From IMG/VR virus record IMGVR_UViG_2228664000_000024, positions 12,205-76,204 of that record: DNA of 64,000 nucleotides; one strand, given 5' to 3'. The notes below the pieces were generated by a model. The model made no database searches and was not told where the DNA came from. It saw only the letters and a list, made by a program, of their open reading frames with translations. Positions 22,888 to 36,495 of the stretch are shown in pieces. Within the stretch, counting starts at the first letter, position 1. The number at the start of each line of letters is the position of its first letter. The stretch is from a virus (taxonomy: Duplodnaviria > Heunggongvirae > Uroviricota > Caudoviricetes > Schitoviridae). Made by a program: the position numbers and the translations under genes.

Positions 22888-23606
22888 GCTTTCTCACCCT
22901 CAATCAGGCGTCCACCAGCAATCTGCCCGGCTGTCTGAGCACCAGAGCGTATAGTTTCCTGCTGTGCCTGTACCAGATTACCCACAGCCGCACGCAGAGC
23001 ATCCAACGTACCATCGTCCTTGTGGTTGATATCCAATTCAACCTTCTTGGTTTCTGGTGGCTTAAGGTGACTCATCAGACTGTTGGCTGCATCACTACGT
23101 ACCTTTTCACTGGTAGCAGTCATCATGATCTCAGCCTGTGTCTGCACAGCCTTCCAGAAGAAATCACGCCCCAGGATATGAACAGGAATCATAGCCTGTT
23201 CCATAATCAAGCCTACCAGCTTGTTATTGTGGTAAGCATGAACGTAACTGGAGATGGCCTTAGCAGTCGTACCTTTCTGCATGAAGTAGTTATAACGCTC
23301 AGGGAACGTCTTAATGTAAGCATCCTGGTTGTTCAACCCCATCAGCTTATAGCTGACATAGCGTACTGCATCCAGATAGCTTTCCAGCTTGTACTTACCC
23401 TCACGCATAACATGAGCATACGTAAGCAGGTTCTCACGATACTGCCCATAGAATGCAGGGTCACTGATTGCTTTGTTAATATTCTGAAGGACTGTATCTG
23501 TCACTGACTTACGTACAGTATCTGGCAGTGCAGCCCTTAACTCATCTATCGTTAACTTTGACATAAGGTATAGGCTCCCTATAGGTTTTAGTGGAGTATA
23601 TGCCAA
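22884..23606 (-). CDS. Hypothetical protein upstream of terL (small terminase subunit candidate)
   Basis: 240-aa ORF; ATGA overlap with the terL start. Confidence 0.35.
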   Translation of the reverse strand: MAYTPLKPIGSLYLMSKLTIDELRAALPDTVRKSVTDTVLQNINKAISDPAFYGQYRENLLTYAHVMREGKYKLESYLDAVRYVSYKLMGLNNQDAYIKTFPERYNYFMQKGTTAKAISSYVHAYHNNKLVGLIMEQAMIPVHILGRDFFWKAVQTQAEIMMTATSEKVRSDAANSLMSHLKPPETKKVELDINHKDDGTLDALRAAVGNLVQAQQETIRSGAQTAGQIAGGRLIEGEKA

Positions 23607-23615
23607 GGAGCCTCT

Positions 23616-23864
23616 ATGTTTAAATATTTCATTGCTTTTGTCGTTAGCTTTGCTTTGGGATTCTTTATCAATACCCTGCTACAACCTGACACATCTAAAC
23701 CAGTAGAAAAGACAGTCACAGTAACGAAGGTAGTTACTAACCCTGGTGTACCGGAAACTATCCGGGTGTTCCATGATGATAGCCGGGGTGTAACTTGCTA
23801 TGAGGGTAAGCAGTCACCTTTACTGTCTTGTGTACCTGATACACAGCTTCGACCTAAGCTATAA
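23616..23864 (+). CDS. Small membrane/secreted protein (82 aa)
   Basis: RBS AAGGAG; N-terminal hydrophobic helix. Confidence 0.45.
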   Translation: MFKYFIAFVVSFALGFFINTLLQPDTSKPVEKTVTVTKVVTNPGVPETIRVFHDDSRGVTCYEGKQSPLLSCVPDTQLRPKL

Positions 23865-23865
23865 A

Positions 23866-23879
23866 TTTTTATAATTTTT
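23866..23879 (+). promoter_or_regulatory. TTTTTATAATTTTT box (copy 1) containing a perfect TATAAT
   Basis: Identical 14-mer repeated at 24075-24088. Confidence 0.35.
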
Positions 23880-23892
23880 ATGAGGAAATTTT

Positions 23893-24057
23893 ATGGGTAA
23901 ACGGATAGCGGTAGCTTGGCGTGTACAGTTCACTAACCCTGAATCATCAGGCAGTAACTTTACCAAGATATACGATAACGAAACAGAGAAAGATAAGTGG
24001 GTACACTTACACCAATTAGGAGGTTTTACCGTTAAGGTTACTCCCCTCTATGAATAA
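23893..24057 (+). CDS. Small hypothetical protein (54 aa)
   Basis: RBS GAGGAAA; ORF shorter than the track cutoff. Confidence 0.35.
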   Translation: MGKRIAVAWRVQFTNPESSGSNFTKIYDNETEKDKWVHLHQLGGFTVKVTPLYE

Positions 24058-24074
24058 AAAGTTTGAGGAAAAAC

Positions 24075-24088
24075 TTTTTATAATTTTT
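24075..24088 (+). promoter_or_regulatory. TTTTTATAATTTTT box (copy 2)
   Basis: Identical to 23866-23879. Confidence 0.35.
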
Positions 24089-24258
24089 CTCATTTAGGTA
24101 CGGATGCACTACTTACTACTCTGGCTGTTAGAAATCTGGGACTCCCCCCGGTGTCATCGCTGTAGAAAAAGAATTCTTACTCCTTACACAAATAAACTTA
24201 AGGCCATAGGCCATGCTGTGAGCAATGGTGCTCATCATACATGTATGGAGTAATACAA

Positions 24259-24531
24259 ATGTCTAACGTATCTAACGTAGCTAAGCCTTCTCTCTTCGCA
24301 GCAATCACTGGTGCTGTTGTCTCTACTGTGTCAGTGGTAACTACTACTGCTGAAGCCATGAACTCACTGGCTAATGCTGGTAACCAACTGGCTAAGGTAG
24401 CAGAGAACAAAGCTACTCGTTTCGGTGAACTCATCGAGATGAAAGACCAGATGACTTACAACGCAATGAAGCATGAGCTTGACCAGCAGGTTGCTGCTCT
24501 CGCTGCATCTCTCGATACCAAACGTAAGTAA
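24259..24531 (+). CDS. Hypothetical protein (90 aa), Ala/Thr/Val-rich N-terminus
   Basis: RBS GGAGTAA upstream of ATG 24259. Confidence 0.45.
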   Translation: MSNVSNVAKPSLFAAITGAVVSTVSVVTTTAEAMNSLANAGNQLAKVAENKATRFGELIEMKDQMTYNAMKHELDQQVAALAASLDTKRK

Positions 24532-24625
24532 GGGCTAAGCCAACATGAACTACATCATCAAGTTTGAAATTGCTGTACGAGTGTTGGCTTATCGCATTCG
24601 TCACTGGTACTGGAAGTAATCCATA

Positions 24626-24655
24626 GCTCACCTTCGGGTGAGCTTATTCTTTTTA
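24626..24655 (+). terminator. Intrinsic terminator AGCTCACC-ttcg-GGTGAGCT plus U-tract
   Basis: UUCG tetraloop, 8-bp stem, TATTCTTTTT. Confidence 0.8.
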
Positions 24656-25139
24656 CACAAGTACACAACTACACAATCAACCTATGACAGTAAGGTGCGC
24701 TAAGCAGGTTCAAAACTTATGGCAATTTACTCGCGCTAGGTATGCCACCTGGAATTCATATACAGATATTCACTTATCGATTTTACTCATAACACTTATC
24801 GAAAAAATGAGTTAGTCAAAAGGGTTGACAGCAAGGTACAGTAAATACATAGACACTTATTACTTAACTTACTACTTCAATCTAACTTAGCTTTGTTTAC
24901 CTCTATCTTATCAACTACTATCTCTATACCTATACTTACCCTATACACTATCTCTATGTATACCTTACATATACCTATAACCTTATAAACACTATGTATA
25001 TAAGTATGGGTATCCTATCTATAACTAGTGAGTACATCGTAGGTACGTAGTACCGTAGATGTACGAACGGTAGATAGTTATATCTATGTCCATAGGACAT
25101 TAAGTGGAGTAATACACTTAACCAATCGGAGATATAACT
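24656..25139. repeat. About 480-bp non-coding AT-rich region with short direct repeats (ACTATCTCTAT x2; CGTAG iterons x3-4)
   Basis: No ORF of 60 aa or more. Pyrimidine-rich plus strand. Repeated ctat/atac/tacc units. CGTAG repeated at 8-14 bp spacing around 25036-25075. Confidence 0.5.
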
Positions 25140-25358
25140 ATGCAAACTAACACTACTCTGTTCTACGTTGATAGCCGTCCTCAATACGGTGAGTTCATTC
25201 AGGCTCAGTATTCACACTGGGAACTATGGTTCTCAGAAGACCCTAACAAGCCAGTCATGCCTTTGGTCATTGACCATGAGTTTCCTGTTAAGCCTACTAA
25301 GCGTCAGGTGCGTAAGCTACGTCGTGCATTCCGTAAAGAAGCCAAACAATACCTGTAA
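25140..25358 (+). CDS. Small basic-tailed protein (72 aa), paralog of 25735-25995
   Basis: RBS GGAGA; C-terminus KPTKRQVRKLRRAFRKE. Confidence 0.5.
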   Translation: MQTNTTLFYVDSRPQYGEFIQAQYSHWELWFSEDPNKPVMPLVIDHEFPVKPTKRQVRKLRRAFRKEAKQYL

Positions 25359-25403
25359 TCACATAGGCCACTGTTGTGGCCTTTAACTTATGTGGAGTAA
25401 GCC

Positions 25404-25721
25404 ATGTCTAACTTATCTGAATGCTCACCTGCTTGTAATTGCATGTATTGCAGACTGTCACAGACTCCCTCAGAAGCTCTGAGAGCTGTTGATGCCAAAC
25501 TTCAAGCCATAGACACCCTCATAGCTAATTATGACAACCTGGAGCGATTCAGTGACCTTCCTGACGGTGCTATCTTCTACCTGGCACAAACCTATGCCTA
25601 TGGTGGGCGTCAGGCACTCATCAAGACACTGGAAGACGGTGGTGACCATAACGCATGTTATGCGGTATATGGGGGTATTGGTATCCACATTAACAATGAC
25701 CGACTGGTCATTCGTAAGTAA
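25404..25721 (+). CDS. Hypothetical Cys-rich N-terminus protein (105 aa)
   Basis: RBS GGAGTAAG. Confidence 0.5.
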   Translation: MSNLSECSPACNCMYCRLSQTPSEALRAVDAKLQAIDTLIANYDNLERFSDLPDGAIFYLAQTYAYGGRQALIKTLEDGGDHNACYAVYGGIGIHINNDRLVIRK

Positions 25722-25734
25722 ACCAGGAGTTAAT

Positions 25735-25995
25735 ATGTTGACTAAATGCAGTGTGTCTATTTCAACGGATGTAGTTTATGTCTCTGCATCCAAGTTCAGT
25801 ATCGGTAATGGCATCATTGAAGATGTGCCTGCTGTATGGCAGGTGTACTTCAGCCGTCAGACTGAACGAGAACATAACTATGGTCTGCCCTATGAACGCT
25901 GCTATGAGTTCGTGACTAAACCTACTCGTAAGCAGATTCGTAAAGCTCGTCGTGACTTCAAAGTGAAGTACGACATGTACGAAAACTACAACTGA
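25735..25995 (+). CDS. Small basic-tailed protein (86 aa), paralog of 25140-25358
   Basis: RBS AGGAG; C-terminus KPTRKQIRKARRDFKVK. Confidence 0.5.
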   Translation: MLTKCSVSISTDVVYVSASKFSIGNGIIEDVPAVWQVYFSRQTEREHNYGLPYERCYEFVTKPTRKQIRKARRDFKVKYDMYENYN

Positions 25996-26315
25996 TGCAC
26001 TACTACGAATCAGGTGCATGGTCATGGTCTATTGACGACTATGACCTTAACGATATCAAGATGAAGAACCTGCTCATACCGGGTTATAAATGCCCGGTTG
26101 ATATCTATATTAGGTCACCAAACCCAGGTATATGGGAATACCCAGACCGTATACCAATAGGACTTAAAGACATACCATTCTCTAAATGGAGATGGTGGGG
26201 TATGCGGTTCAATGGACTAATCATTGACCTACAACCGACAGCAATTTACTGCTGTCTCATAACCAGAAGAACAGTAATGGAATGCCTCGCTACTGTGCAT
26301 CGCAGAGCACAGTGA
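25995..26315 (+). CDS. Hypothetical protein (106 aa), Trp-rich
   Basis: ATGA overlap with the upstream gene. Confidence 0.45.
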   Translation: MHYYESGAWSWSIDDYDLNDIKMKNLLIPGYKCPVDIYIRSPNPGIWEYPDRIPIGLKDIPFSKWRWWGMRFNGLIIDLQPTAIYCCLITRRTVMECLATVHRRAQ

Positions 26316-26326
26316 GCAAAGCGAAC

Positions 26327-26339
26327 TGTGCATAGCACA
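26327..26339 (+). promoter_or_regulatory. Conserved hairpin, class ATA (TGTGC-ata-GCACA)
   Basis: 5-bp stem, 3-nt loop; flanks match copies at 29787 and 30152. Confidence 0.4.
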
Positions 26340-26374
26340 CGTATCGGAAACAACAATAACTAAGGTGCATAACT

Positions 26375-26464
26375 ATGCTTAATGACTTACCTCTTATTGC
26401 CCTCAGTGCAATCGTCTTCTTCGCAGCAATTTGCTACATCGACAACAAATATCCGAGGAAATAA
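26375..26464 (+). CDS. Tiny membrane peptide (29 aa)
   Basis: RBS AAGGTG; single hydrophobic helix. Confidence 0.3.
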   Translation: MLNDLPLIALSAIVFFAAICYIDNKYPRK

Positions 26465-26472
26465 ACCAGTGA

Positions 26473-26618
26473 ATGAACTACAGAAAATGTGGGTGAAAGC
26501 CTACGAAGAATACCTGGCACAAGCTAAAGCTGAAGGCCGGGTTGGCACTACATGGGTAAATGGTGCTCGTGTTCATGCTGATAATGTTATGGCATCCCTT
26601 AAACGTCTGGAGAACTAA
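26473..26618 (+). CDS. Small hypothetical protein (48 aa)
   Basis: RBS GAGGAAA. Confidence 0.35.
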
Positions 26619-26619
26619 T

Positions 26620-26709
26620 TATGACCATTCGTAAATCAACTATCCGTCGTATCGCTAAATGTACAGTGGCTATGGCTGCTGTTGCTCTCACTCTGTACGT
26701 GGGGGCATG
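26620..26709 (+). CDS. Tiny membrane peptide (29 aa)
   Basis: ATG follows the previous stop by 1 nt; hydrophobic segment. Confidence 0.3.
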
Positions 26710-26895
26710 ATGCGTAACGACTCTATGCGTAAAGAACTTAAGTTCAAACACGAGGGTGAAGACTACGTAGTAGTAGTTCAGTTAACCCGTAGAACTTTAG
26801 AAGCAGCAAAGAATAAAGCGAAGAGTAACAACGGTACTGTGCTATACAGCGCCAAACTATTCGCTATGTCTACCTGGAGGAATATATTCAAATGA
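26707..26895 (+). CDS. Small basic protein (62 aa)
   Basis: ATGA overlap. Confidence 0.4.
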   Translation: MMRNDSMRKELKFKHEGEDYVVVVQLTRRTLEAAKNKAKSNNGTVLYSAKLFAMSTWRNIFK

Positions 26896-27206
26896 ACGTA
26901 CATGATGCAATCGTTAAAGCCAGACAAGAAGGATGGGAGATGAGACTCGAAAGAGATCATCTGCGTGAGTTCGCTGAACCTCAAATCCGTAAACGTCTGG
27001 TAGAAACTCGTCTGGGCTATAGATATTACGTTATGCGTATCGAAATCCAGATTGGTGAAGACCTGTATTACCATATGGCTACCGAGTGCAAAGTGGATGA
27101 CACTACCAAGCTTCCAATACTTGAAGAGGTTGCTGGTAAAGTATTTAGACGCTACCACAGTGGTGGTCAAATTAACCTGTTACATTGGCAGAAGGTGGAG
27201 TTCTAA
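26892..27206 (+). CDS. Hypothetical protein (104 aa)
   Basis: RBS GGAGG; ATGA overlap. Confidence 0.5.
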   Translation: MNVHDAIVKARQEGWEMRLERDHLREFAEPQIRKRLVETRLGYRYYVMRIEIQIGEDLYYHMATECKVDDTTKLPILEEVAGKVFRRYHSGGQINLLHWQKVEF

Positions 27207-27385
27207 TGAAATTCAAAGATATCCCTGAACAAGCACACTTCAGCTTAACTGAAGATGAGCGTATTGGGCTGGATATAACTTACATTAAATCCTACCAGAA
27301 TGCTGGTAGGTATAACGCAGTTAAACTAGGTAAGTTAACTGTACCAGTCCTACTCCAGCCTGATTTCGAAGTTACTCTAAAATAA
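27206..27385 (+). CDS. Small hypothetical protein (59 aa)
   Basis: Overlapping start; ends at a terminator. Confidence 0.4.
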   Translation: MKFKDIPEQAHFSLTEDERIGLDITYIKSYQNAGRYNAVKLGKLTVPVLLQPDFEVTLK

Positions 27386-27408
27386 GCCCTTCGGGGCTTA
27401 TCTTTTTT
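27385..27408 (+). terminator. Intrinsic terminator AGCCC-ttcg-GGGCT plus TTTTTT
   Basis: UUCG tetraloop plus U-tract. Confidence 0.75.
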
Positions 27409-27425
27409 AATGCACTCCGTGCATT
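27409..27425 (+). promoter_or_regulatory. Conserved hairpin, class GGA (AATGCAC-tcc-GTGCATT; GGA loop on the template strand); candidate vRNAP-type hairpin promoter
   Basis: 7-bp stem, 3-nt loop. Shares GCACTCCGTGCRTTG(N2-3)TGAGTT with the copy at 34016. Lies between a terminator and the next gene. Confidence 0.45.
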
Positions 27426-27454
27426 GTAATGAGTTAGTAACTTAGGAGTAACCA

Positions 27455-27742
27455 ATGAAAGAAATAACCTATTGGGTAATTAGACACATACCCACTAAAC
27501 GTATCCTTGCTACTGCTGACAGCGTAGGCAAGGGCAGAGGTAATACTCGTGTTGATATTCAAGACACAGGTTTACCTCGACTGTTTGAAACAGAGAGGCG
27601 AGCTAAATATTGTCTCGCTCGCTGGCTTGAAGGTAAATTCCATATGACCTGGGAAGATGGAATTGAAGTTAGCACTCCAGCTATTCCTCGTATAAAGGAG
27701 GATATGGAAATCATACCTGTTCAACTTAAGGTGATGGTATGA
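27455..27742 (+). CDS. Hypothetical protein (95 aa)
   Basis: RBS AGGAGT. Confidence 0.5.
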   Translation: MKEITYWVIRHIPTKRILATADSVGKGRGNTRVDIQDTGLPRLFETERRAKYCLARWLEGKFHMTWEDGIEVSTPAIPRIKEDMEIIPVQLKVMV

Positions 27743-28041
27743 AGACTATTAACTTATGTTATCAAACAGGTAAATACACTTTTATTCTCACACTTGATGA
27801 GGGTGCTATACATAACTTAAAAACCAGAAGATTAATGGGTATGCACAAGCATACAGGTAAGTGGCCTATGTTAATTATGGAGACTGACCGCATAGCGTTA
27901 TACCCGAATGATCTTCATCGTATGTATACCATCCCAGAAACTGGTATGCGTATTCACCTCAATGTACCTATTGCACCTGATGCAATGTGTTGGGTATGCC
28001 CTACAACTGATGAGCTTAATGCTCTTATCTATTTCGAGTAA
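27739..28041 (+). CDS. Hypothetical protein (100 aa)
   Basis: ATGA overlap. Confidence 0.5.
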   Translation: MKTINLCYQTGKYTFILTLDEGAIHNLKTRRLMGMHKHTGKWPMLIMETDRIALYPNDLHRMYTIPETGMRIHLNVPIAPDAMCWVCPTTDELNALIYFE

Positions 28042-28047
28042 ACAACT

Positions 28048-28227
28048 ATGGTTGATATCGAATATAAACTCATTAGAAATGAGAATAAGTCTTCCAAATA
28101 CCCGTGGGTAGTTATTAAGAGCTATCCAGGATTCTTTCACTATTTCTACTGTTCTGATAAACAAAAGAAAGATTTCCCTAACTTAGCTGACTTATATAAA
28201 GAGGCCCGTAAAAATGGCAAAGCGTAG
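28048..28227 (+). CDS. Small hypothetical protein (59 aa)
   Basis: ORF just below the track cutoff; tight packing. Confidence 0.35.
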   Translation: MVDIEYKLIRNENKSSKYPWVVIKSYPGFFHYFYCSDKQKKDFPNLADLYKEARKNGKA

Positions 28228-28498
28228 ACTGCGTGCATTCAATGCTACAGCATTGTATATCCACATGACCCCAGAGTTACTGAAGAATCTGAAGATTAAA
28301 CTTCAGGTGCTTAAGGCCCCTTATGTGGAAATGAAATTGCCTACATTCAGAAACCAGCATAAGAAATCAACCAAGCAAATAAAGGTTGGTGATGGCCTAT
28401 GGATCGAAGCTCAGCTTATGTATCCTGACCTCTGTAAGGCTGGTACATATCTGGAAGCTTATTGGCGCTTTAATCTGACCCGGAGGATACCCTTCTAA
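28214..28498 (+). CDS. Hypothetical basic protein (94 aa)
   Basis: ORF overlaps the upstream end by 14 nt. Confidence 0.4.
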   Translation: MAKRRLRAFNATALYIHMTPELLKNLKIKLQVLKAPYVEMKLPTFRNQHKKSTKQIKVGDGLWIEAQLMYPDLCKAGTYLEAYWRFNLTRRIPF

Positions 28499-28608
28499 AA
28501 CTACGGTTTGGGGCAAATCCTACCTTGATGAGCTTGTGTCATTTACTGAGGCAGTTACTCAAACTGAACTTAGTAGAAGCCAGAAACAATTAATGGGAGT
28601 TTTAACTC

Positions 28609-28920
28609 ATGGTAATAATCCGTGATGTGATTCGATATCATCCATCAGGTACTAAGTTAATAGCTGAAGCTAAAGTAACTGAAGAAGAGTTCAATAAGAT
28701 CAGAACTCTATTCCTGATTGGTAATAAAGAACCAGTGGAACTGGTGACCAGTATCTATTGGTATGACGGTGGTTATCCACCTAAGCCAGTGTATATGGTA
28801 TGTCCTCAAGATTGGCGTGGTCAGCTAATAGGGGATGACTATGTAGTCAATAACAAAGAACCGCGTAAGTGGTTATTTGAATATAAACCAGTAAAGGATA
28901 CTGGCGGGGCTGCTATATGA
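28609..28920 (+). CDS. Hypothetical protein (103 aa)
   Basis: RBS GGGAG. Confidence 0.5.
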   Translation: MVIIRDVIRYHPSGTKLIAEAKVTEEEFNKIRTLFLIGNKEPVELVTSIYWYDGGYPPKPVYMVCPQDWRGQLIGDDYVVNNKEPRKWLFEYKPVKDTGGAAI

Positions 28921-29210
28921 GAGTTGGTAACGCATCAATGGCAACGCCATCTAAGTTTTACACTAAATTAACTGAAGACGAGTTAATGAAACTTAAGACT
29001 AAAGCTTTACTTACTGGTGATTCATTTACCAATGATGACTACCAAAGTTTCCTTGTTACATTACCAACATGGACAAGCAAAGGTAAACCTGAAAAGTCTA
29101 ACTGCTTAAAGTTTCAGACTCGTTCTGTTCATCTCATTTATGTGGATGACAATTCATACTCAACCAAACCAGGAGTAATGGAAAAGTGGATAATCAGAAT
29201 ATACCATTAG
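28917..29210 (+). CDS. Hypothetical protein (97 aa)
   Basis: ATGA overlap. Confidence 0.45.
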   Translation: MRVGNASMATPSKFYTKLTEDELMKLKTKALLTGDSFTNDDYQSFLVTLPTWTSKGKPEKSNCLKFQTRSVHLIYVDDNSYSTKPGVMEKWIIRIYH

Positions 29211-29527
29211 ACGTTGTAGAGATATTACGTTGGGAAGCCACCACAAGGCAATTTGACCGTATAGGTTATGTGCTTCCAGATGTAATGGAAAACCTCAAAA
29301 CTCGTGTAATGCTTACACCCAATTTTACATGGACAGGTGATATCATTATTGATATTCGCATGTTCGAATTGGGGCCGGGTAGACTAGTCGGAGAACTCAT
29401 GTTCAAAGTAGATATACCGGGCATTAAATGTAAAACCATACTGCTCAGTGTCCGTTTAACCAAGCAAATGCTTCAGGGTAAGGAACCCTATGTTAAAACG
29501 GAGGCAACAATTAAAGGATTCGGTTAA
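29186..29527 (+). CDS. Hypothetical protein (113 aa; start uncertain, GTG at 29186 or a later ATG)
   Basis: ORF from the track; overlaps the upstream gene. Confidence 0.4.
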   Translation: MDNQNIPLDVVEILRWEATTRQFDRIGYVLPDVMENLKTRVMLTPNFTWTGDIIIDIRMFELGPGRLVGELMFKVDIPGIKCKTILLSVRLTKQMLQGKEPYVKTEATIKGFG

Positions 29528-29787
29528 TGGCTACAATAAAAAGAAAAGGCACTAATGTGTTTACTGCTACGTTTGATAGCTCACTATTAACCAATAACGG
29601 TGGATCTTTACTAATTGATTTGGAAATTAGTAAATGGGGTTCTAAAGCATTTAGTGATGGTTTTCTATTTAGTCGTTATCACTTTAAGTTCAACCTTGAG
29701 CAAGAGTTAACTTTGCAAGTAAAAACCAAACTTTTGTTAGGTGCAACAGTACGTATAACTGTACCTGCAACATACGAAGATTGGTAA
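29527..29787 (+). CDS. Hypothetical protein (86 aa)
   Basis: RBS AAGGA; TAATG overlap. Confidence 0.45.
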   Translation: MATIKRKGTNVFTATFDSSLLTNNGGSLLIDLEISKWGSKAFSDGFLFSRYHFKFNLEQELTLQVKTKLLLGATVRITVPATYEDW

Positions 29788-29803
29788 ACGTGCATAGCAC
29801 GTT
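29787..29803 (+). promoter_or_regulatory. Conserved hairpin, class ATA (AACGTGC-ata-GCACGTT)
   Basis: 7-bp stem, 3-nt loop. Abuts the upstream stop codon. Ends 2 nt before ATG 29806, which has no RBS. Confidence 0.45.
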
Positions 29804-29805
29804 AA

Positions 29806-30150
29806 ATGACTAATAATACTCTGGTTTCAGGGCTGCTGAAGCCAGGGTTCAACTCTAAGGATTGTTGTATGCCAACTATGAATATTGATCATGCTCAGAC
29901 TAATCTGCGCTGGTGTAAGCGTGCGTGGATGGACGGAGAAATGCGTGATCTGGCATTGTTCCTGTTCCACAAAGGTATGTCTCAATTAATTATGTCCGAC
30001 CTGGCTTTAGAGACTCAGGTTGAAGTCGCTGCCTCTATTCTGGGGCGTGAAGCATTCGAAGACCTCTCTGCGTTTAGTGAAGAGGTCAACGGCTGTCCTC
30101 TGCAATATGCTGCATGGCGTGACCGTGTTAGCTGCTTAATCATCTGTTAG
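29806..30150 (+). CDS. Hypothetical protein (114 aa), no recognizable SD
   Basis: ORF from the track; start 2 nt after the hairpin. Confidence 0.4.
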   Translation: MTNNTLVSGLLKPGFNSKDCCMPTMNIDHAQTNLRWCKRAWMDGEMRDLALFLFHKGMSQLIMSDLALETQVEVAASILGREAFEDLSAFSEEVNGCPLQYAAWRDRVSCLIIC

Positions 30151-30151
30151 A

Positions 30152-30168
30152 AACGCGCATAGCGCGTT
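30152..30168 (+). promoter_or_regulatory. Conserved hairpin, class ATA (AACGCGC-ata-GCGCGTT)
   Basis: 7-bp stem, 3-nt loop; begins 1 nt after stop 30150; flank GTTATGTGCAA. Confidence 0.45.
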
Positions 30169-30240
30169 ATGTGCAATTAAGGGCATGTTAAGCCCACATT
30201 CTGTTATTAATCATCTACTCATCTTTAAGAGGTATATATC

Positions 30241-30525
30241 ATGGCTTTCACTCGTACTCCTTCTGCAAACAACGCTCCTGCTGACAACGCTGCTAAGAAC
30301 AAAGTTGGCGGCTATCTGAACATCAACATTCTGACCCGTGACGGTTCCCGTAAACGTCTGGGCGGCTCTGGTATTGCTCTGCGTGAAAACCACCCGGTTG
30401 AAGGCGCGATTCTGGCTCTGATTCGTTCAAATCCAGAGAAGCTGCAAGACCTGGTTGGCCGTATTGAGCTGACCTTTGGCGAAGCTCACAAAGAAGGCGA
30501 ATTCGTCGATCTGGGCATCGAATAA
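30241..30525 (+). CDS. Small abundantly expressed protein (94 aa), monocistronic unit; candidate early DNA-binding/activator protein
   Basis: Strong RBS TAAGAGGT. Bracketed by the hairpin at 30152 and a terminator at 30535. Gly/Arg-rich. Confidence 0.5.
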   Translation: MAFTRTPSANNAPADNAAKNKVGGYLNINILTRDGSRKRLGGSGIALRENHPVEGAILALIRSNPEKLQDLVGRIELTFGEAHKEGEFVDLGIE

Positions 30526-30534
30526 TCCAACCAA

Positions 30535-30558
30535 GCCAACCTTCGGGTTGGCTTTTTT
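30535..30558 (+). terminator. Intrinsic terminator GCCAACC-ttcg-GGTTGGC plus TTTTTT
   Basis: UUCG tetraloop plus U-tract. Confidence 0.8.
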
Positions 30559-30570
30559 ATTGAGGTATGT

Positions 30571-30735
30571 ATGGAAAAGATCTCTGTAACACCAACCAAA
30601 TGGGCAGTAGTCGTAGGTTACGTTGAGTATCACGCTGGGCGTCAGTTCCCGTGGTTAGGGCGTCATGGCTGTGCCATCAGCTTCTTCGTTACCGAGGATG
30701 AAGCTACTCAGTTCGCTATCACAGGTAATCTGTAA
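30571..30735 (+). CDS. Small hypothetical protein (54 aa)
   Basis: RBS GAGGT. Confidence 0.35.
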   Translation: MEKISVTPTKWAVVVGYVEYHAGRQFPWLGRHGCAISFFVTEDEATQFAITGNL

Positions 30736-31022
30736 TGGGTGACGAATACAACAGTGAGTATCCACAGATACCACCTACGCATTTACGCTGCAAAGTAGAT
30801 AAATGTGTAGCCCTCAAACTCGATCCACGATTCGACAAAATCGTTCGTACCAAGATGCTGTTAGGCATCACTAAAAGTATCAAATTACGGGGCCATATCC
30901 CGTATAGAACTGCATCAATCAAACCAGAACGTATTACATCAGAGCTTGAATTCTCTGGCTTCAAGGCCAGTGCAGAATACAGAGGCTCTGGTACATGGGT
31001 GATTAACGTAAGGAGAAAGTAA
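30735..31022 (+). CDS. Hypothetical protein (95 aa)
   Basis: TAATG overlap on both sides. Confidence 0.45.
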   Translation: MGDEYNSEYPQIPPTHLRCKVDKCVALKLDPRFDKIVRTKMLLGITKSIKLRGHIPYRTASIKPERITSELEFSGFKASAEYRGSGTWVINVRRK

Positions 31023-32002
31023 TGCACCATTGGCTCGCTAAGGAAGAATTGCAACTCATCAATGAACGTCAGTTCAACCGTAAGCATATCGATGGCTATA
31101 TCCGTGCAGAACTCTTCGAAGGCCAGGAGAACCTCTGGCCTGAAGTAGCACAGGGCGTAGAGCTATTGAATCAATGGATGGATCAGCAGTTCTATGACAG
31201 CAAAGCTGTTCGTATCAGTCACTTAAGACAACTGGACTTAGAGAAGCTCGTTGTCGAGATATTCGTAGGTGTGTGCTACGTACAGGAGGAAACACCACTG
31301 GTCAACGTCATTGGTCAACTGGCTTCACGTATCGGCTTTGACGATAAGCGTGACAGCATTCAGACCATTGCCGAAGTGCTGGCTGTGCTGTGTGAAACTG
31401 ATGTTTATGACATCAGCAAACCACACCCTAAAGCCAGTCTGTATATCAAATCGAACATCACCTTTGATGAGAGATTAAGCAATTTCATTGCATACTCATG
31501 CTATTTACCGCCGCTGGTTTGTGAACCTCGTGAACTGGTAAATAACCGTTCAACCGCTTATTACACGCACGAATCAGATAGCCTGATTCTGGGTGGAGGA
31601 TTTAACCATCATGACGGAAACATCTGCCTTGATGTACTTAATTCACGCAATCGTGTTCCTCTTTCCCTGGACGTGCAATTCCTTTGCACAGTGGAAGAAG
31701 AACCAACTCACGATCTCGATGTTATTGACTCTGACGAGGATCTCAGTGACTGGCAAATAGCCGATATGGTACGCAAACAGAAGCAAAACTGGGCGCGTTA
31801 CAAAGAGCAGTCGTACTACTTCTACAGCCTGATGGTGAACCAGGGTAATAGGTTCTACATCAGCAACAAGGTAGACAAACGCGGGCGCATGTACGCCTGT
31901 GGCTACCACATCACCCCACAGGGAACCAGCTTCAAGAAAGCGATGATTAACTTTGCCGATCAAGAGCAAGTAACAGGTGTCCCTGCACAATTCAGAAAAT
32001 GA
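31022..32002 (+). CDS. Phage RNA polymerase II, N-terminal-type subunit (T7-like RNAP promoter-binding/DxxGR region)
   Basis: DKRGRMYACGYHITPQGT matches T7 RNAP DWRGRVYA...NPQGN. Followed by the palm-domain subunit. Confidence 0.7.
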   Translation: MHHWLAKEELQLINERQFNRKHIDGYIRAELFEGQENLWPEVAQGVELLNQWMDQQFYDSKAVRISHLRQLDLEKLVVEIFVGVCYVQEETPLVNVIGQLASRIGFDDKRDSIQTIAEVLAVLCETDVYDISKPHPKASLYIKSNITFDERLSNFIAYSCYLPPLVCEPRELVNNRSTAYYTHESDSLILGGGFNHHDGNICLDVLNSRNRVPLSLDVQFLCTVEEEPTHDLDVIDSDEDLSDWQIADMVRKQKQNWARYKEQSYYFYSLMVNQGNRFYISNKVDKRGRMYACGYHITPQGTSFKKAMINFADQEQVTGVPAQFRK

Positions 32003-32014
32003 GAGGAATAACTT

Positions 32015-33289
32015 ATGCAACATACTATCAATTTCGGTACTGGCTTCCAGAGATTCTCCGGCTGGGAATATCTCTGCATCGACGTAGCCAACCATTATGG
32101 GCTGGATAAAGAACTATTCAATACCCGCATTCAGTGGGTGTATGACCACATCGATAACCTGGAAACATTGGCAGATGATGCCGATGAACCAGTGCTGTTC
32201 AAGAAAGCTGTTATGACCCTTCGCCGTGCTCAGCACGGTGAGGCTGTAGGCCATGTAGTTCACTTCGATGCCTGCTGCTCTGGTATCCAGATTATGTCTG
32301 CACTTACTGGCTGTGAAGCTGGTGCATACAACACTGGTATGGTTGACCCGGATCAGCGTATGGATGCGTACAGCAACACCACTGGCGAGATGAACAAGAT
32401 TCTGCAAACCAAAGGGTTAGCAAGTATCACTGTTCCTCGTGGTGATGTTAAACAAGCCGTAATGACTTCAGGCTATGGCTCCAAAGCTGTACCTAAGAAG
32501 GTATTCGGTGAAGGTGAGATGCTGGACGTGTTCTACGATGCAGCTATGACCATCGCTCCGGGCGCATTTAAGCTCATGGATGAACTTCTGGAATCATGGC
32601 GTCCATTTGCCTTAGAACACCGTCTGGTGGCTCCTGATGGCTTCACAGCCGTCATTAAGGTAATGGAAACCAAGGAAACCAGAATTGAAGTGGATGAACT
32701 CGACCATGCAACGTTTACGCTGCAATACCGTGTGAACGAAGGTACAGAGCGTGGACGTGCTAACGTAGCGAATACCATTCACTTCTGTGATGCGTATCTC
32801 CTGCGTGGCATTGAGCGTCGTTGCAACTACGATCCAGTGGTTGTAAGCAATGCTCAGGAAGTCCTGCGTATGGCTGCTCTGGGCTATTCCTGCGGTAATA
32901 CGCAGATGGCTTGCACTGACGAACTCAGTGAACTACTGCCACTGTGCATTCGCTCTCACATCGCTGATGTGGCGCTTCTGCCATTGCTGCGTTGGGATAA
33001 CGTCATGTGTCTGCCTAAGTGGATGGTGCATAAGCTGCTGTCTATCGTTAACGATATGCTGTCTTACAAGCCATTCCCTATTCTGACTGTCCATGATGCC
33101 TTCGGTGCTCATGCCAATAACTGTGACCTCACTCGTTACTGGTACAAAGAGATCATGGCCGATATGGCTGATTCCAACCTGCTGGAAATGCTGATGTGCC
33201 AGCTTTACCAAATCACTGACGGTAAGTATGAAAAGCTCAGCCCAAATCTGGGAGATAAAATCAGGAACTCAAACTATGCGCTTTCTTAA
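32015..33289 (+). CDS. Phage RNA polymerase II, catalytic (palm) subunit, T7-like
   Basis: Motif A HFDACCSGIQIMSAL (T7 DGSCSGIQHFSAM). Motif B KQAVMTSGYGS. Motif C HDAFGAH (T7 HDSFGTH). Confidence 0.75.
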   Translation: MQHTINFGTGFQRFSGWEYLCIDVANHYGLDKELFNTRIQWVYDHIDNLETLADDADEPVLFKKAVMTLRRAQHGEAVGHVVHFDACCSGIQIMSALTGCEAGAYNTGMVDPDQRMDAYSNTTGEMNKILQTKGLASITVPRGDVKQAVMTSGYGSKAVPKKVFGEGEMLDVFYDAAMTIAPGAFKLMDELLESWRPFALEHRLVAPDGFTAVIKVMETKETRIEVDELDHATFTLQYRVNEGTERGRANVANTIHFCDAYLLRGIERRCNYDPVVVSNAQEVLRMAALGYSCGNTQMACTDELSELLPLCIRSHIADVALLPLLRWDNVMCLPKWMVHKLLSIVNDMLSYKPFPILTVHDAFGAHANNCDLTRYWYKEIMADMADSNLLEMLMCQLYQITDGKYEKLSPNLGDKIRNSNYALS

Positions 33290-33473
33290 GATCTGGTGGC
33301 ACAAACGTCAAGCCAGAAAAGCACGTATAGCATTCTACAACCTTACCTATATGTACCAGTGCGGGATAGATGTAATCAACACTGTGACAGGGGGTGAATA
33401 CAACCGTCTGGTTAATGTCTACAACAAGCACATTCTCTGGCTTAAAGAGCATGACCCAAAGTATCCGAAATAA
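33276..33473 (+). CDS. Small hypothetical protein (65 aa)
   Basis: RBS AGGAA; overlaps the RNAP gene end. Confidence 0.35.
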   Translation: MRFLKIWWHKRQARKARIAFYNLTYMYQCGIDVINTVTGGEYNRLVNVYNKHILWLKEHDPKYPK

Positions 33474-33479
33474 CCACCA

Positions 33480-33502
33480 GCCACCCTTCGGGGTGGCTTT
33501 TT
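33480..33502 (+). terminator. Intrinsic terminator GCCACCC-ttcg-GGGTGGC plus TTTTT
   Basis: UUCG tetraloop plus U-tract. Confidence 0.8.
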
Positions 33503-33516
33503 CATTTGGAGATCCT

Positions 33517-33771
33517 ATGAAACTACTGCACTCGCTGCCTTACACAAAGGACGGAGTAGTCCATCCAGTAGGCAGAATGACTGTACCTAAATCACTGGTT
33601 TCAACTATGAAAGCCAGTCTGTTATGTGGTATGCCAGAGGTTGAACTCAGACTTACGCCTGACATTATTAAATCTCAAGGTATGCCAGTTCACTTACCTA
33701 CGTTGGGCGTAGTTGGTGTAGCTGTATACGCTGATGGTGACGACCGGGTAGTGAAACTCTACCAGGAGTAA
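33517..33771 (+). CDS. Hypothetical protein (84 aa)
   Basis: RBS GGAGA. Confidence 0.45.
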   Translation: MKLLHSLPYTKDGVVHPVGRMTVPKSLVSTMKASLLCGMPEVELRLTPDIIKSQGMPVHLPTLGVVGVAVYADGDDRVVKLYQE

Positions 33772-33773
33772 CT

Positions 33774-34016
33774 ATGGCTGCATTCGAAGGCTACCAGGTC
33801 TTCCGAGATAAGATGACCGCTGTTTACACAACAAAAGAGATGTACGATCAGTTCATGACTAAGAAGCTCTTAGGCGTGAAAGTGATAAATCTTAGAGGAA
33901 CCTTAATGGAAGATGCTACGCATGTAATCGACTTCAAAGAACATGGAGTGATTGAAGCCAAAGCATCTTACTTTGACTTTGACAGAACCCAACGTATTAC
34001 GCTTAAACTTAAATGA
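33774..34016 (+). CDS. Hypothetical protein (80 aa)
   Basis: RBS AGGAGT. Confidence 0.45.
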   Translation: MAAFEGYQVFRDKMTAVYTTKEMYDQFMTKKLLGVKVINLRGTLMEDATHVIDFKEHGVIEAKASYFDFDRTQRITLKLK

Positions 34017-34030
34017 CGCACTCCGTGCGT
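34016..34030 (+). promoter_or_regulatory. Conserved hairpin, class GGA (ACGCAC-tcc-GTGCGT)
   Basis: 6-bp stem, 3-nt loop. Same flanking consensus as 27409. Followed by a second hairpin GACGC-tttc-GCGTC (34041-34054) and a terminator. Confidence 0.45.
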
Positions 34031-34083
34031 TGAGTGAGTTGACGCTTTCGCGTCTGTATAACTTAATTTTCTCATTTCTGAAG

Positions 34084-34116
34084 GGCTATCCTATTTATTG
34101 GGATAGCCTATTTTTT
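34084..34116 (+). terminator. Intrinsic terminator GGCTATCC-(9 nt)-GGATAGCC plus TTTTTT
   Basis: 8-bp stem plus U-tract; likely end of the early transcription unit. Confidence 0.7.
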
Positions 34117-34260
34117 ATACTTCAGAGACTTCTAAGACAGTCATGTACATAGTTCTAGAACTTCTATAGAAGTTTTATACCTATATGCTAGACAGTCAAA
34201 AATCGACACTTTTGACTTTACCCTACCTAAACCCTAAATCCACTTATCTATAGGCTAAAA

Positions 34261-34497
34261 ATGAACGCAATAACCTTCATTGCTATGGTCGGTGCTGTCT
34301 GGTTCGGACTCGGCTGGACACTCGGATCTGGCGCTAAAAAACGACTGATGCACCGTCTTGAAAATACACCTGACGCACTTGTAGCTTTAAGTCTAGCCTT
34401 ACAAGTAAACCAGATTAACCAAGCACGAAAGGTATATCTCCTTAAGTGCATAGTCTGTTTAATCGTAGGTGTATTGGCACATCTGGTCGTGAGGTAG
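34261..34497 (+). CDS. Small membrane protein (78 aa, 2 TM)
   Basis: Two hydrophobic helices. Confidence 0.45.
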   Translation: MNAITFIAMVGAVWFGLGWTLGSGAKKRLMHRLENTPDALVALSLALQVNQINQARKVYLLKCIVCLIVGVLAHLVVR

Positions 34498-34499
34498 TT

Positions 34500-34727
34500 A
34501 TGGACTACAAACTGTTTACTTACGTGTTAGCTGTAATGGCTTTTCTCTGCTTCCTAAATGCAGCGGATTACTGGGAAGATTATCGCCGTTATTACTGGCA
34601 ATTCACTTCCCAGGCTCAAGCCAGGTATGGGAGACACATCCGTCGCAATGCAGTGCTCTGTGTACTGTGGGGTGTCTTTTGGGCAGCTATTGCAGCTATT
34701 TGTTGGTTTATTCCACAAGGAACTTAA
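34500..34727 (+). CDS. Small membrane protein (75 aa, 2 TM)
   Basis: RBS GAGGT; hydrophobic helices. Confidence 0.45.
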   Translation: MDYKLFTYVLAVMAFLCFLNAADYWEDYRRYYWQFTSQAQARYGRHIRRNAVLCVLWGVFWAAIAAICWFIPQGT

Positions 34728-34728
34728 C

Positions 34729-35346
34729 ATGCAACTTACTAAAGATATGGAACTGAAAGTTCGCCGTGCATTAATGCAATACAGTGAATATCAGGTAGCC
34801 AATATGTATGGCCTTCGTGTAGGCACGGTACGTGCTATCAAGGTGCAGATGGAAGAAGAACGTCAAGTTCCGATTAACTTCTCTGCCGGTAGATCTCAAC
34901 TGGATCTGTACCGTGAACTAACGGCTACTGGCCGTAAGCAGGAAACTCCCCTGGAAATGGGATTACGTCTTCATGAGGATCTGTTTAAGTCCCATAACCT
35001 TGCGTTAGACAAGGTGCATAAAGCAGCCTCTGATGCGGATTACGCTGGTTTAGAAGGCCGTGTAATGGCTGGCTTCTTCACGCCTAACGGCTTGCCTACG
35101 CCAGCCTTCTGGGGCTTTATAAGCCAGTATGTGAAGAAGTCCGGGCATACCATGCTGGACATTCTGCACGACAATGAAATCTACGCTCCAGAGCAATTAG
35201 AACGTGCTCTGGATATCGACTCACAAATTCAAGACATGACACAGGCTCAGCGTATTGCTTTGCTACGTCGTCTTTCTGCTGCGGTATATTCAGATGAATT
35301 CAAAGATCCAACCGATCCCGGTTCCGATGTTCAGGACAGCGAATAA
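34729..35346 (+). CDS. Hypothetical protein with helix-turn-helix-like segment (205 aa)
   Basis: RBS AAGGAA; EYQVANMYGLRVGTVRAIK is HTH-like. Confidence 0.4.
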   Translation: MQLTKDMELKVRRALMQYSEYQVANMYGLRVGTVRAIKVQMEEERQVPINFSAGRSQLDLYRELTATGRKQETPLEMGLRLHEDLFKSHNLALDKVHKAASDADYAGLEGRVMAGFFTPNGLPTPAFWGFISQYVKKSGHTMLDILHDNEIYAPEQLERALDIDSQIQDMTQAQRIALLRRLSAAVYSDEFKDPTDPGSDVQDSE

Positions 35347-35353
35347 CCTCAAT

Positions 35354-35632
35354 GAGGCTATGTCCGAAATCAAGCAGCATACGTATCCGTATGATCCCAA
35401 TACTATTCACTCACTGGTGATGATGTACCACAACACACTACTGAGCGAACTCAAAAAAGAAGGCCGTCTGGTTAACATTTATATCGTTAAACCAGGTGAT
35501 AGCCTTTACTCGATTGCAGAAACCTACACAGGTATCGGAGAGAACTGGAAGATCCTGGCTGAAATGAATGATGTGGATCCACCAGATCTCATCTATCCAA
35601 ACCAGGTATTGAAGATTCCTGCTGATTGGTAG
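35354..35632 (+). CDS. LysM domain protein (about 92 aa; alternative start at 35321)
   Basis: C-terminal YIVKPGDSLYSIAETYTG...NQVLKIP matches the LysM pattern. Confidence 0.6.
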   Translation, partial: EAMSEIKQHTYPYDPNTIHSLVMMYHNTLLSELKKEGRLVNIYIVKPGDSLYSIAETYTGIGENWKILAEMNDVDPPDLIYPNQVLKIPADW

Positions 35633-35646
35633 TGGCCTCCGGCCAC
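35632..35646 (+). promoter_or_regulatory. Hairpin GTGGCC-tcc-GGCCAC (class GGA-like loop, divergent flanks)
   Basis: 6-bp GC stem, TCC loop, directly after the stop codon. Confidence 0.3.
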
Positions 35647-35693
35647 CATGTGGCTTGCTGATCTCACCACTTCGTGAGTAAGCGGAGAAAACT

Positions 35694-35930
35694 ATGGAAC
35701 ATGTAATTGAACATCCTCATCACAATGCGACTAAGACAGTCACGATTGAGCCTGTAAAGCTCAAACCTGGCTTAGCTTACCGTATTCGAATCACCTCTCA
35801 GAATTATTCTGGAAGAACCTCTATGTACTCTGAACAGAACATTGAGTTGATTCTATTTGAGGAAGAACTGGACGGGCTTATTACTGCCCTCAATAAAGCC
35901 AAAATGGCTAAGTTATTAGGGGTTAAGTAA
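35694..35930 (+). CDS. Hypothetical protein (78 aa)
   Basis: RBS GGAGAAA. Confidence 0.45.
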   Translation: MEHVIEHPHHNATKTVTIEPVKLKPGLAYRIRITSQNYSGRTSMYSEQNIELILFEEELDGLITALNKAKMAKLLGVK

Positions 35931-36292
35931 TGCCACCCAGTAAGAATCATCCCCATCCTGATCGTCGTCAGGAGATCTGCAATCGCATTATGCAACGTGT
36001 AGATATCCGTGACTGCGGTTATCGAGTTAATGGTGTTGTATCCCCTTGTCACGTATGGACTGGCCCCACTTCGGGCGAAGGACGAGGCGGAGGCTATGGG
36101 CGTATTAGCATCAACAGTCAGACGTGCGCTACCCACATCGTTATGGCTACCCACTATTTCGGTTATATCCCCGGCAATAAGCAGGTAGACCATAAGTGTC
36201 GTAATCGCTTGTGTTGTAATCCTGAGCATCTCGAACTGGTAAGCCAGAAAGAGAATTGCCGTCGTCGTGACAAAGCCCTAAAGGAGAAGTAA
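35930..36292 (+). CDS. HNH endonuclease (free-standing, homing-type)
   Basis: CHVWTG...GYGRI...HKCRNRLCCNPEHLELVSQKEN: His-Asn-His with a Cys4 zinc site. Confidence 0.75.
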   Translation: MPPSKNHPHPDRRQEICNRIMQRVDIRDCGYRVNGVVSPCHVWTGPTSGEGRGGGYGRISINSQTCATHIVMATHYFGYIPGNKQVDHKCRNRLCCNPEHLELVSQKENCRRRDKALKEK

Positions 36293-36495
36293 TGAATAAG
36301 TATTTCAAACTCTACCTGTACGCAGTAATCATATTGCTCGTATCGGGTGTGTTATACGGTGGCTTGCTGCCGTCAATGGTATCGGCTAACGATACTATCC
36401 TCGTGTTCATCGGCATTGCTGGTGCTCTGGTGTGGCCTGCTCTGGTGGTCACTTTTGTCTATCGTCAATTTAAGAAGAAATTTAAAAATGCGTAA
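36292..36495 (+). CDS. Small membrane protein (67 aa, 2 TM)
   Basis: RBS AAGGAGAAG; hydrophobic helices. Confidence 0.45.
   Translation: MNKYFKLYLYAVIILLVSGVLYGGLLPSMVSANDTILVFIGIAGALVWPALVVTFVYRQFKKKFKNA

Follow-up and report, generated by a model that had tools for sequence, protein, structure and literature searches.

Five short hairpins with an ATA loop, located in the early region of an N4-like phage (Schitoviridae, Cbunavirus-like), are probably early promoters of the injected virion RNA polymerase (vRNAP). By analogy with related systems, we assign them to this enzyme and not to the phage RNA polymerase II (RNAPII), and we do not regard them as terminators or RNase III sites. The DNA analyzed, referred to as the window, is a stretch of 64,000 nucleotides (nt) of IMG/VR record IMGVR_UViG_2228664000_000024 (positions 12,205 to 76,204 of that record), and positions given below are those of the window unless a relative is named. 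Three of the hairpins, at 26327, 29787 and 30152, had been reported with correct coordinates and sequences in a preliminary description of the window; two further copies, at 24202 and 25086, are added here (Table 1). As judged from the sequences, the hairpins are functional elements: their stems covary among relatives, they are restricted to one strand and one region, and a G is fixed at a constant distance downstream of the loop.

Number, folding and position of the ATA hairpins

The preliminary description had proposed a genome-wide motif search. Both strands of the whole window were scanned for hairpins in which an ATA triloop is closed by a C·G pair on a stem of 4 bp or more. The scan returned exactly five hairpins, all of them on the + strand, intergenic and inside 24202–30168. 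Their enrichment was evaluated against 300 dinucleotide-preserving shuffles of the window. Stems of 5 bp or more occur in four hairpins, compared to a shuffle mean of 0.56, and only one of the 300 shuffles reaches four. For stems of at least 6 and at least 7 bp, the observed numbers are three and two, respectively, with shuffle means of 0.14 and 0.04, and none of the shuffles reaches either number. The bare heptamer GCATAGC, with nine matches versus 8.7 expected, is not enriched in the window. Since the word occurs at expectation and the hairpins are in excess, the signal resides in the hairpin context and not in the word.

Folded as single-stranded DNA (ssDNA), the template strands of the five hairpins have energies of −3.3 to −8.1 kcal/mol, with z scores of −2.1 to −4.2 in four of them; the hairpin at 29787 folds with −6.6 kcal/mol and z = −4.2. 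A G is located at +13 from the loop centre in every copy. In four copies it is the last base of a GTG or ATG triplet (Table 1); at 26327 the triplet is TCG (26344–26346), in which the +13 G is retained.

The nearest GenBank record is that of Enterobacter phage vB_Ecl_SABI (SABI, 91% identity), followed at ~70% identity by the Cbunavirus phages CB1, Kc283, Nepra, Possum, phiA41 and EK8. A near-identical IMG/VR contig, L035 (75,468 bp), has an RNAPII small subunit identical to that of the window. Positions 24114–24130 (TACTACTCTGGCTGTTA) are the same as the first 17 nt of the experimentally defined left terminus of CB1. Based on this match, the physical left end of the genome, where the terminal repeat starts, is most likely at ~24114, so that the window would be a permuted assembly spanning the genome ends. 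The hairpins are found at +89 nt and at +1.0, +2.2, +5.7 and +6.0 kb from this end, in the leftmost ~8% of the ~75-kb genome, and all of them lie 5′ of the RNAPII genes. Sigma-70-like promoters are depleted in the surrounding region (23500–36500), where nine were found versus 26.1 ± 5.9 expected, which is consistent with a region read by phage polymerases and not by the host RNA polymerase.

Covariation and conserved marks in related phages

Loci of relatives were collected via an alignment of the RNAPII small subunit. In SABI, CB1, Kc283, EK8, phiA41 (L011), L033-L035 and Erwinia phage MIF8, the syntenic places are likewise occupied by ATA-loop hairpins, with other stems. The copy at 24202 has counterparts in CB1 (83–95) and Kc283 (74159, TGGCC-ata-GGCCA). 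At the 25086 site, which lies 5′ of a gene starting at 25140, the 5′ arm of the stem is ATGTCC in the window, TACGC in SABI, ATAGTGC in CB1, AGTGC in Kc283 and EK8, and CTGTCC in MIF8. The hairpin at 26327 is found in identical form, followed by GTG, in L034 and L035, and its CB1 homologue at 1778 is CGTGC-ata-GCACG. The copy at 29787 corresponds to hairpins in CB1 (6381), Kc283 (3770) and EK8 (21756, ACGCGC-ata-GCGCGT), and the copy at 30152 to CB1 6745–6759. Because syntenic hairpins maintain their pairing with differing stems, it is the structure rather than the sequence that is selected, as far as can be read from the alignments. In the full genomes of CB1 and Kc283, C-ATA-G hairpins that have stems of 5 bp or more are confined to the early region or terminal repeat and to the coding strand; the single exception lies on the other strand and is a palindrome in conserved coding sequence.

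The covariation was quantified at the site of the 30152 hairpin, which precedes a gene similar to that of LUZ7 Drc, an ssDNA-binding cofactor by which RNAPII is recruited (see below). Eleven lineages could be aligned at this site without gaps over a 7-bp stem. The 5′ arms include AACGCGC, ACGGCC, AGGCGC and GAATGGCC. In the alignment, 93.5% of the cells are paired versus 63% in shuffles (0 of 500 shuffles reach the observed value) and 21–47% when the partner is slid. Changes on both sides were found at six of the seven pairs, and 22 cells are compensatory. No lineage departs from the closing C·G pair or from the G located 13 nt 3′ of the loop centre. The loop triplet varies among lineages: it is ACA in the Klebsiella Efbeekayviruses (CATTGCCC-aca-GGGCAATG), AAG in L012 and TAC in the LUZ7/LIT1-like phages. 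Across lineages, the loop triplet is thus lineage-specific, the closing pair and the +13 G are fixed, and the stems drift by compensation. Among 64 distinct members of the hairpin family, many of them related in sequence, R-T-G is found at +11 to +13 in 43. The position next to the end of the stem, compared in order to tell an RNA hairpin from a DNA hairpin, could form G·T or T·G in 22 of the 64.

These patterns bear on the possibility that the palindromes are duplex operators of a dimeric regulator, encoded by the phage or the host. Perfect palindromes of 11–17 bp in intergenic positions 5′ of genes would be compatible with that function. However, the half-sites vary between copies and between syntenic sites; only the loop triplet, the closing pair and the ability of the arms to pair are kept. 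A dimeric operator would keep its arms, and because here the arms vary and the centre is conserved, we consider such a function very improbable and have rejected it.

One hairpin upstream of the Drc gene deviates from perfect pairing. In L033 (IMGVR_UViG_3300038674_000113, 7952–7968) the sequence AAGGCGC-ata-GCGCGTT is paired except for a single G·G, with a left arm as in EK8/Kc283 and a right arm as in the window. This suggests either a recombinant or a compensatory change in progress.

Relation to stop codons and terminators

The preliminary description had placed its three hairpins within 0–11 nt of a stop codon. This spacing is reproduced here: the hairpin at 26327 begins 11 nt past TGA 26313–26315, the first A of the hairpin at 29787 is the last base of TAA 29785–29787 (a gap of 0 nt), and the hairpin at 30152 begins 1 nt past TAG 30148–30150. 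The lack of a U-tract noted for these three hairpins extends to all five copies, none of which is followed by a T-run, as an intrinsic terminator would be. An Rfam scan of the window reached the gathering score for four tRNAs only and returned no family for the ATA hairpins.

The location directly past stop codons, and the fact that the hairpins would fold in read-through RNA, could speak for a role at the RNA level, as a 3′ stabilizer, a processing site, a U-tract-independent terminator or an RNase III site. Several observations make such a role improbable. The stems of 4–7 bp are far below the double-stranded RNA of ~20 bp or more that RNase III needs, so that the RNase III site suggested in the preliminary description was rejected. 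Its alternative suggestion of U-tract-independent terminators was also dropped, as every unit is already closed by a canonical terminator with a TTCG tetraloop and a T-run (at 24625, 27382, 30533 and 33479), and a terminator scan of the + strand selects these TTCG-loop hairpins and not the ATA hairpins. The copy at 24202, ~89 nt from the genome end, has no gene 5′ of it. The invariant loop triplet, closing pair and +13 G point to a start site downstream of the hairpin and not to a 3′ end.

A Drc-like gene downstream of the hairpin at 30152

The hairpin at 30152 ends 72 nt before the ATG (30241) of a gene for a Drc-like cofactor of RNAPII (Table 1), and a homologous arrangement is found in all lineages examined. 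The identity of the product is based on several comparisons. BLASTP aligns it to LUZ7 Drc (gp14; E = 4e-05), conserving the YLN...TRDG motif that includes Y23, and to CB1_20 (E = 7e-29). A weak match to PDB entry 6qlc was also found, and the Kc283 homologue is annotated as 'ssDNA binding RNA Polymerase cofactor'. According to Boon et al. (PMC7145618), CB1-like phages have homologues of Drc. The strong ribosome-binding site and the separate terminator (30533–30554) described earlier for this unit are both present.

Just 3′ of the predicted start of the Drc mRNA, a stem-loop, GGGC-atgttaa-GCCC, is located at 30182–30196. Relatives hold a stem-loop at this position with other sequences (GGGCaaaatcGCCC, AGGCAatccTGCCT and AGGCaaaaGCCT), and LUZ7 has GGCaacaatcGCC. 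It may act as a 5′-terminal stabilizer of a very abundant mRNA.

Comparison with promoters of N4, LUZ7 and CB1

The vRNAP promoters of N4 are template-strand hairpins with a stem of 5–7 bp and a 3-nt loop, and they occupy the genome's leftmost 10% (PMC4496689). The template loop is GGA, with G at −10 and −11, A at −12 and a sheared G:A, and a GC-rich heptamer is centred at −11 (PMC4496689). Similar to the N4 promoters P1–P3, the ATA hairpins are short inverted repeats with a 3-nt loop. Their stems measure 4, 6, 5, 7 and 7 bp, the 4-bp copy being below the N4 range. The template loop is 5′-TAT-3′ in all five copies, with A as the central purine corresponding to −11 in N4. The −9C, which belongs to the closing C·G pair, is also present in 5/5 copies, and the arrangement GC-NNN-GC at the loop, which gives the template −8G at the second stem pair from the loop, in the promoter-proximal arm, in three (26327, 29787 and 30152). 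Additional similarities are the left-end location and the giant virion RNA polymerase encoded by the window phage. A phmmer comparison of this polymerase with N4 mini-vRNAP structures, aimed at the loop-contacting residues W129, K114, R119, D901 and R904 of N4, found no similarity at E ≤ 10 with either the whole fragment or the polymerase-domain stretch. In contrast to N4, the conserved G is 13 nt and not 11 nt from the loop centre, there are five copies instead of three, and the cofactor of the second polymerase is Drc-like instead of gp2. The middle promoter of N4 RNAPII is AT-rich and hairpin-free, with a minimal region of −7 to +2 (PMC4496689); the window elements, as GC-containing hairpins with covarying arms, are not of this type.

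A closer match is provided by LUZ7, in which nine early start sites were mapped by ONT-cappable-seq (PMC9163698). At most of these, a G start is found 13–14 nt from the centre of a hairpin whose stem measures at least 4 bp and whose 3-nt loop is conserved, and the two strongest early starts, 33 nt apart, drive Drc (PMC9163698). In the LUZ7 sequence, we located C-TAC-G hairpins with 4–5 bp stems just 5′ of Drc, at 3663–3675 and 3695–3707. Exactly 33 nt separate their +13 and +14 G's, and it is by this spacing and the Drc context only that they were matched to the published description. By location and architecture, as read from the two sequences, the hairpin at 30152 is the counterpart of these LUZ7 hairpins. 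The ATA hairpins share with the LUZ7 early sites a stem of at least 4 bp, a 3-nt loop closed by C·G, a G at +13 (+13/+14 in LUZ7) and the R-T-G, as well as the placement of one or two hairpins directly 5′ of Drc, with a stem-loop behind them in the 5′ untranslated region. They differ in the coding-strand loop, which is TAC in LUZ7 and ATA here, and in number upstream of Drc, a tandem pair in LUZ7 versus a single hairpin here. The LUZ7 sites have been mapped experimentally, whereas those of the window are predictions. LUZ7 middle promoters have a GC-rich hairpin (stem ≥6 bp, loop 3–4 nt) ~15 bp 5′ of a G start (PMC9163698). The ATA copies do not correspond to this middle type, as none is located 3′ of the RNAPII genes; a second, TCC-loop hairpin family of the window fits it better.

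The ATA family has already been proposed in this clade as vRNAP promoters, in the form of predictions. The record of the Pectobacterium phage CB1 (KY514264) lists promoters at 829–883, 1777–1891 and 6745–6769, noted as predicted stem loops of the N4 early type, and each of them contains an ATA hairpin. CB1_promoter_1, CB1_promoter_2 and CB1_promoter_3 correspond to the window hairpins at 25086, 26327 and 30152, respectively. Table S4 of Buttimer et al. 2018 gives CB1 76–105 and 2085–2114 on the complementary strand, where the loop reads TAT (PMC6027278). The Pectobacterium phages CB1, CB3 and CB4 have the same ATA family in syntenic positions, and the CB1 hairpins at 83, 861, 1778, 2092, 6381 and 6745 correspond to window copies, with stems that differ from those of the window by compensatory changes. 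The authors gave only three promoters per genome, one of them a GTA-loop hairpin, and CB1 6381, the counterpart of 29787, was left unannotated. A literature search for transcript mapping in Schitoviridae other than LUZ7 gave nothing relevant, and promoter diversity is treated neither in a 2026 N4 vRNAP structure paper nor in a Migulavirinae preprint.

A proposed mode of early initiation

Based on the analogy with N4 and LUZ7, we propose that negative supercoiling of the entering left end would extrude the short inverted repeats as hairpins. The vRNAP would then recognize the template-strand hairpin with its 5′-TAT-3′ loop, central purine and C·G closing pair. Initiation would take place at the R-T-G located 11–13 nt 3′ of the loop centre, with the invariant +13 G as the likeliest first base and starts predicted at ~24220, 25106, 26346, 29808 and 30173. 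The five promoters would drive early operons, including the gene of the Drc-like RNAPII cofactor, which would be heavily expressed. Together with the terminators, these predicted promoters and starts give a transcription map of the early region for an uncharacterized N4-like phage. For phage biology at large, the hairpins confirm an expected feature and are no surprise.

Proposed assignment of two hairpin classes to vRNAP and RNAPII

In addition to the ATA hairpins, the window contains hairpins with a TCC loop (Table 1). These have GC-rich stems of 6–7 bp and are conserved, with covarying stems, in SABI, CB1, Kc283, EK8, MIF8, Klebsiella phages and LUZ7. The presence of a second, GC-rich TCC-loop class 3′ of the RNAPII genes is a further similarity to LUZ7, in which TCC hairpins with 6–7 bp stems are found at 8238, 9521 and 35252, 3′ of the RNAPII genes and at the heads of + strand operons. 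Because the LUZ7 TCC hairpins fit the published description of middle promoters, the TCC hairpins are probably middle promoters used by RNAPII with Drc.

The preliminary description had suggested that the ATA hairpins could be promoters of the second phage polymerase. The hairpin promoter of a phage polymerase is retained from that suggestion, but location and the Drc context favour vRNAP over RNAPII. All copies lie 5′ of the RNAPII genes and within the leftmost ~6 kb, one of them ~89 nt from the end, and one copy precedes the Drc-like gene, which in LUZ7 is under mapped early hairpin promoters.

The reverse assignment, with the ATA hairpins as middle promoters of RNAPII and its Drc-like cofactor and the TCC hairpins as vRNAP promoters, has been weighed against these observations. 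The vRNAP promoters of N4 and KP8 are coding-strand GC-TCC-GC hairpins, like the window TCC loops, one window TCC hairpin (27409) is within the early region, and the middle promoters of LUZ7 are likewise hairpins. However, the LUZ7 hairpins upstream of Drc, with their TAC loops and 4–5 bp stems, fit the early class, and the LUZ7 TCC hairpins (6–7 bp, GC-rich, 3′ of RNAPII) fit the middle class. Action of RNAPII needs Drc and RNAPII to be made first, yet the promoter adjacent to Drc is an ATA hairpin. In CB1, as in the window, an ATA hairpin lies ~89 nt from the end that enters first, and none of the three genomes compared (window, CB1 and Kc283) has an ATA hairpin 3′ of its RNAPII genes. We therefore regard the reverse assignment as unlikely.

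Several points weigh against reading the ATA hairpins as vRNAP promoters. The assignment to a polymerase depends on the analogy with LUZ7 and N4, and within that analogy the LUZ7 hairpins are matched through spacing and context. The template loop is TAT here versus GGA in N4, with neither a sheared G:A mini-hairpin nor a GC-rich heptamer, and the template −8G that N4 vRNAP needs is missing in two of the five copies (24202 and 25086, with coding CC-ata-GG). The GGA loop of N4 (and KP8) vRNAP promoters is instead that of the TCC hairpins on their template strand. In the more distant L021, L022 and L025, the hairpins 5′ of Drc or RNAPII have TCC loops. Finally, the RNAPII genes lie past the terminator at 30533 and have no hairpin of their own, so that their early expression would need read-through. 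With these points included, vRNAP is still the probable reader of the ATA hairpins.

It is possible, and we put it forward tentatively, that the Drc-type branch of Schitoviridae uses two orthogonal classes of hairpin promoters that are told apart mainly by the loop. The vRNAP would read a loop that varies by lineage, with ATA in the window phage and MIF8, ACA in the Klebsiella Efbeekayviruses, TAC in the LUZ7/LIT1-like phages and AAG in L012, and RNAPII with Drc would read a constant TCC loop. If so, an ancestral hairpin specificity would have been reassigned between polymerases, TCC being the loop of N4 vRNAP, and the loop specificity of vRNAP would have switched repeatedly between genera. 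The lineage variants offer a natural mutagenesis series for hairpin reading by the single-subunit vRNAP and for orthogonal promoter/polymerase pairs.

Start of the gene downstream of the hairpin at 29787

An ATG 2 nt behind the hairpin at 29787, previously taken as a hint of a leaderless mRNA, is indeed present (29806). A leaderless start at this ATG was not retained, on the following grounds. The profile phrog_24678 begins at residue 22 of the open reading frame (ORF) 29806–30150, and the SABI coding sequence (L001 11444–11725) has a start equivalent to 29869, where the window has an ATG with a Shine-Dalgarno sequence (Table 1). The ATG at 29806 is not kept in CB1, Kc283 and EK8, and it coincides with the R-T-G at +11 to +13 of the hairpin. 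From these comparisons, it is most likely an initiation motif and not a start codon, and the gene most likely begins at 29869. The gene start is corrected accordingly; the frame in the ORF list was over-extended by 21 codons.

Features of the early region and minor observations

The positions of the hairpins and of the genes and terminator discussed above are collected in Table 1.

Table 1. Hairpins, genes and terminator of the window considered in this study
Feature	Position	Strand	Details
ATA hairpin, copy 1	24202-24212	+	GGCC-ata-GGCC; stem 4 bp; GTG at 24218-24220; not in the preliminary description
ATA hairpin, copy 2	25086-25100	+	ATGTCC-ata-GGACAT; stem 6 bp; GTG at 25104-25106; not in the preliminary description
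ATA hairpin, copy 3	26327-26339	+	TGTGC-ata-GCACA; stem 5 bp; weakest of the five
ATA hairpin, copy 4	29787-29803	+	AACGTGC-ata-GCACGTT; stem 7 bp; ATG at 29806-29808
ATA hairpin, copy 5	30152-30168	+	AACGCGC-ata-GCGCGTT; stem 7 bp; GTG at 30171-30173
Gene 3′ of copy 4, corrected start	29869-30150	+	ATG 29869; Shine-Dalgarno AAGGA
Drc-like ssDNA-binding RNAPII cofactor	30241-30525	+	94 aa; phrog_6271, E = 1.7e-15
Intrinsic terminator of the Drc unit	30533-30554	+	TTCG tetraloop and T-run
RNAPII small subunit	31022-32002	+	phrog_2166, E = 2e-112
RNAPII large subunit	32015-33289	+	phrog_2051, E = 4.4e-149
Virion RNA polymerase (vRNAP)	3-6779	-	N-terminal 2259 aa, gene leaves the window; phrog_2206, E = 0, 1080.8 bits
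TCC hairpin	27409-27425	+	AATGCAC-tcc-GTGCATT; directly behind the T-run of terminator 27382-27401
TCC hairpin	34016-34030	+	ACGCAC-tcc-GTGCGT; 3′ of the RNAPII genes
TCC hairpin	35632-35646	+	GTGGCC-tcc-GGCCAC; covarying stems: SABI AATGCCC, Kc283 ATGCCC, EK8 AGTGCCC

A further TCC hairpin is found at 37460–37474, within a conserved coding region. Behind the TCC hairpin at 34016 lies a unit of ~85 nt without an ORF (34031–34116), with a 5′ stem-loop, GACGC-tttc-GCGTC, at 34041–34054. The unit holds the conserved sequence CTG(T/C)ATAACTTA(A/G)TTTT and ends in a terminator with a T-run (34083–34109), the stem of which is different yet complementary in the alignment of CB1, Kc283, EK8 and MIF8. 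It is a candidate small non-coding RNA.

Between the terminator at 24625 and the hairpin at 25086, ~430 nt of AT-rich non-coding DNA (24650–25085) are rich in short repeats of the CTATAC/TATACC type, with a TTGACA-type sigma-70-like site at ~24826. An ORF of 29 codons (MLNDLPLIALSAIVFFAAICYIDNKYPRK) with an AGG Shine-Dalgarno sequence is present at 26375–26464, 3′ of the hairpin at 26327, and resembles a small membrane peptide; SABI has a 90-nt coding sequence at this position (L001 8010–8099), and the ORF list of the window gives an overlapping frame of 78 aa (26382–26618).

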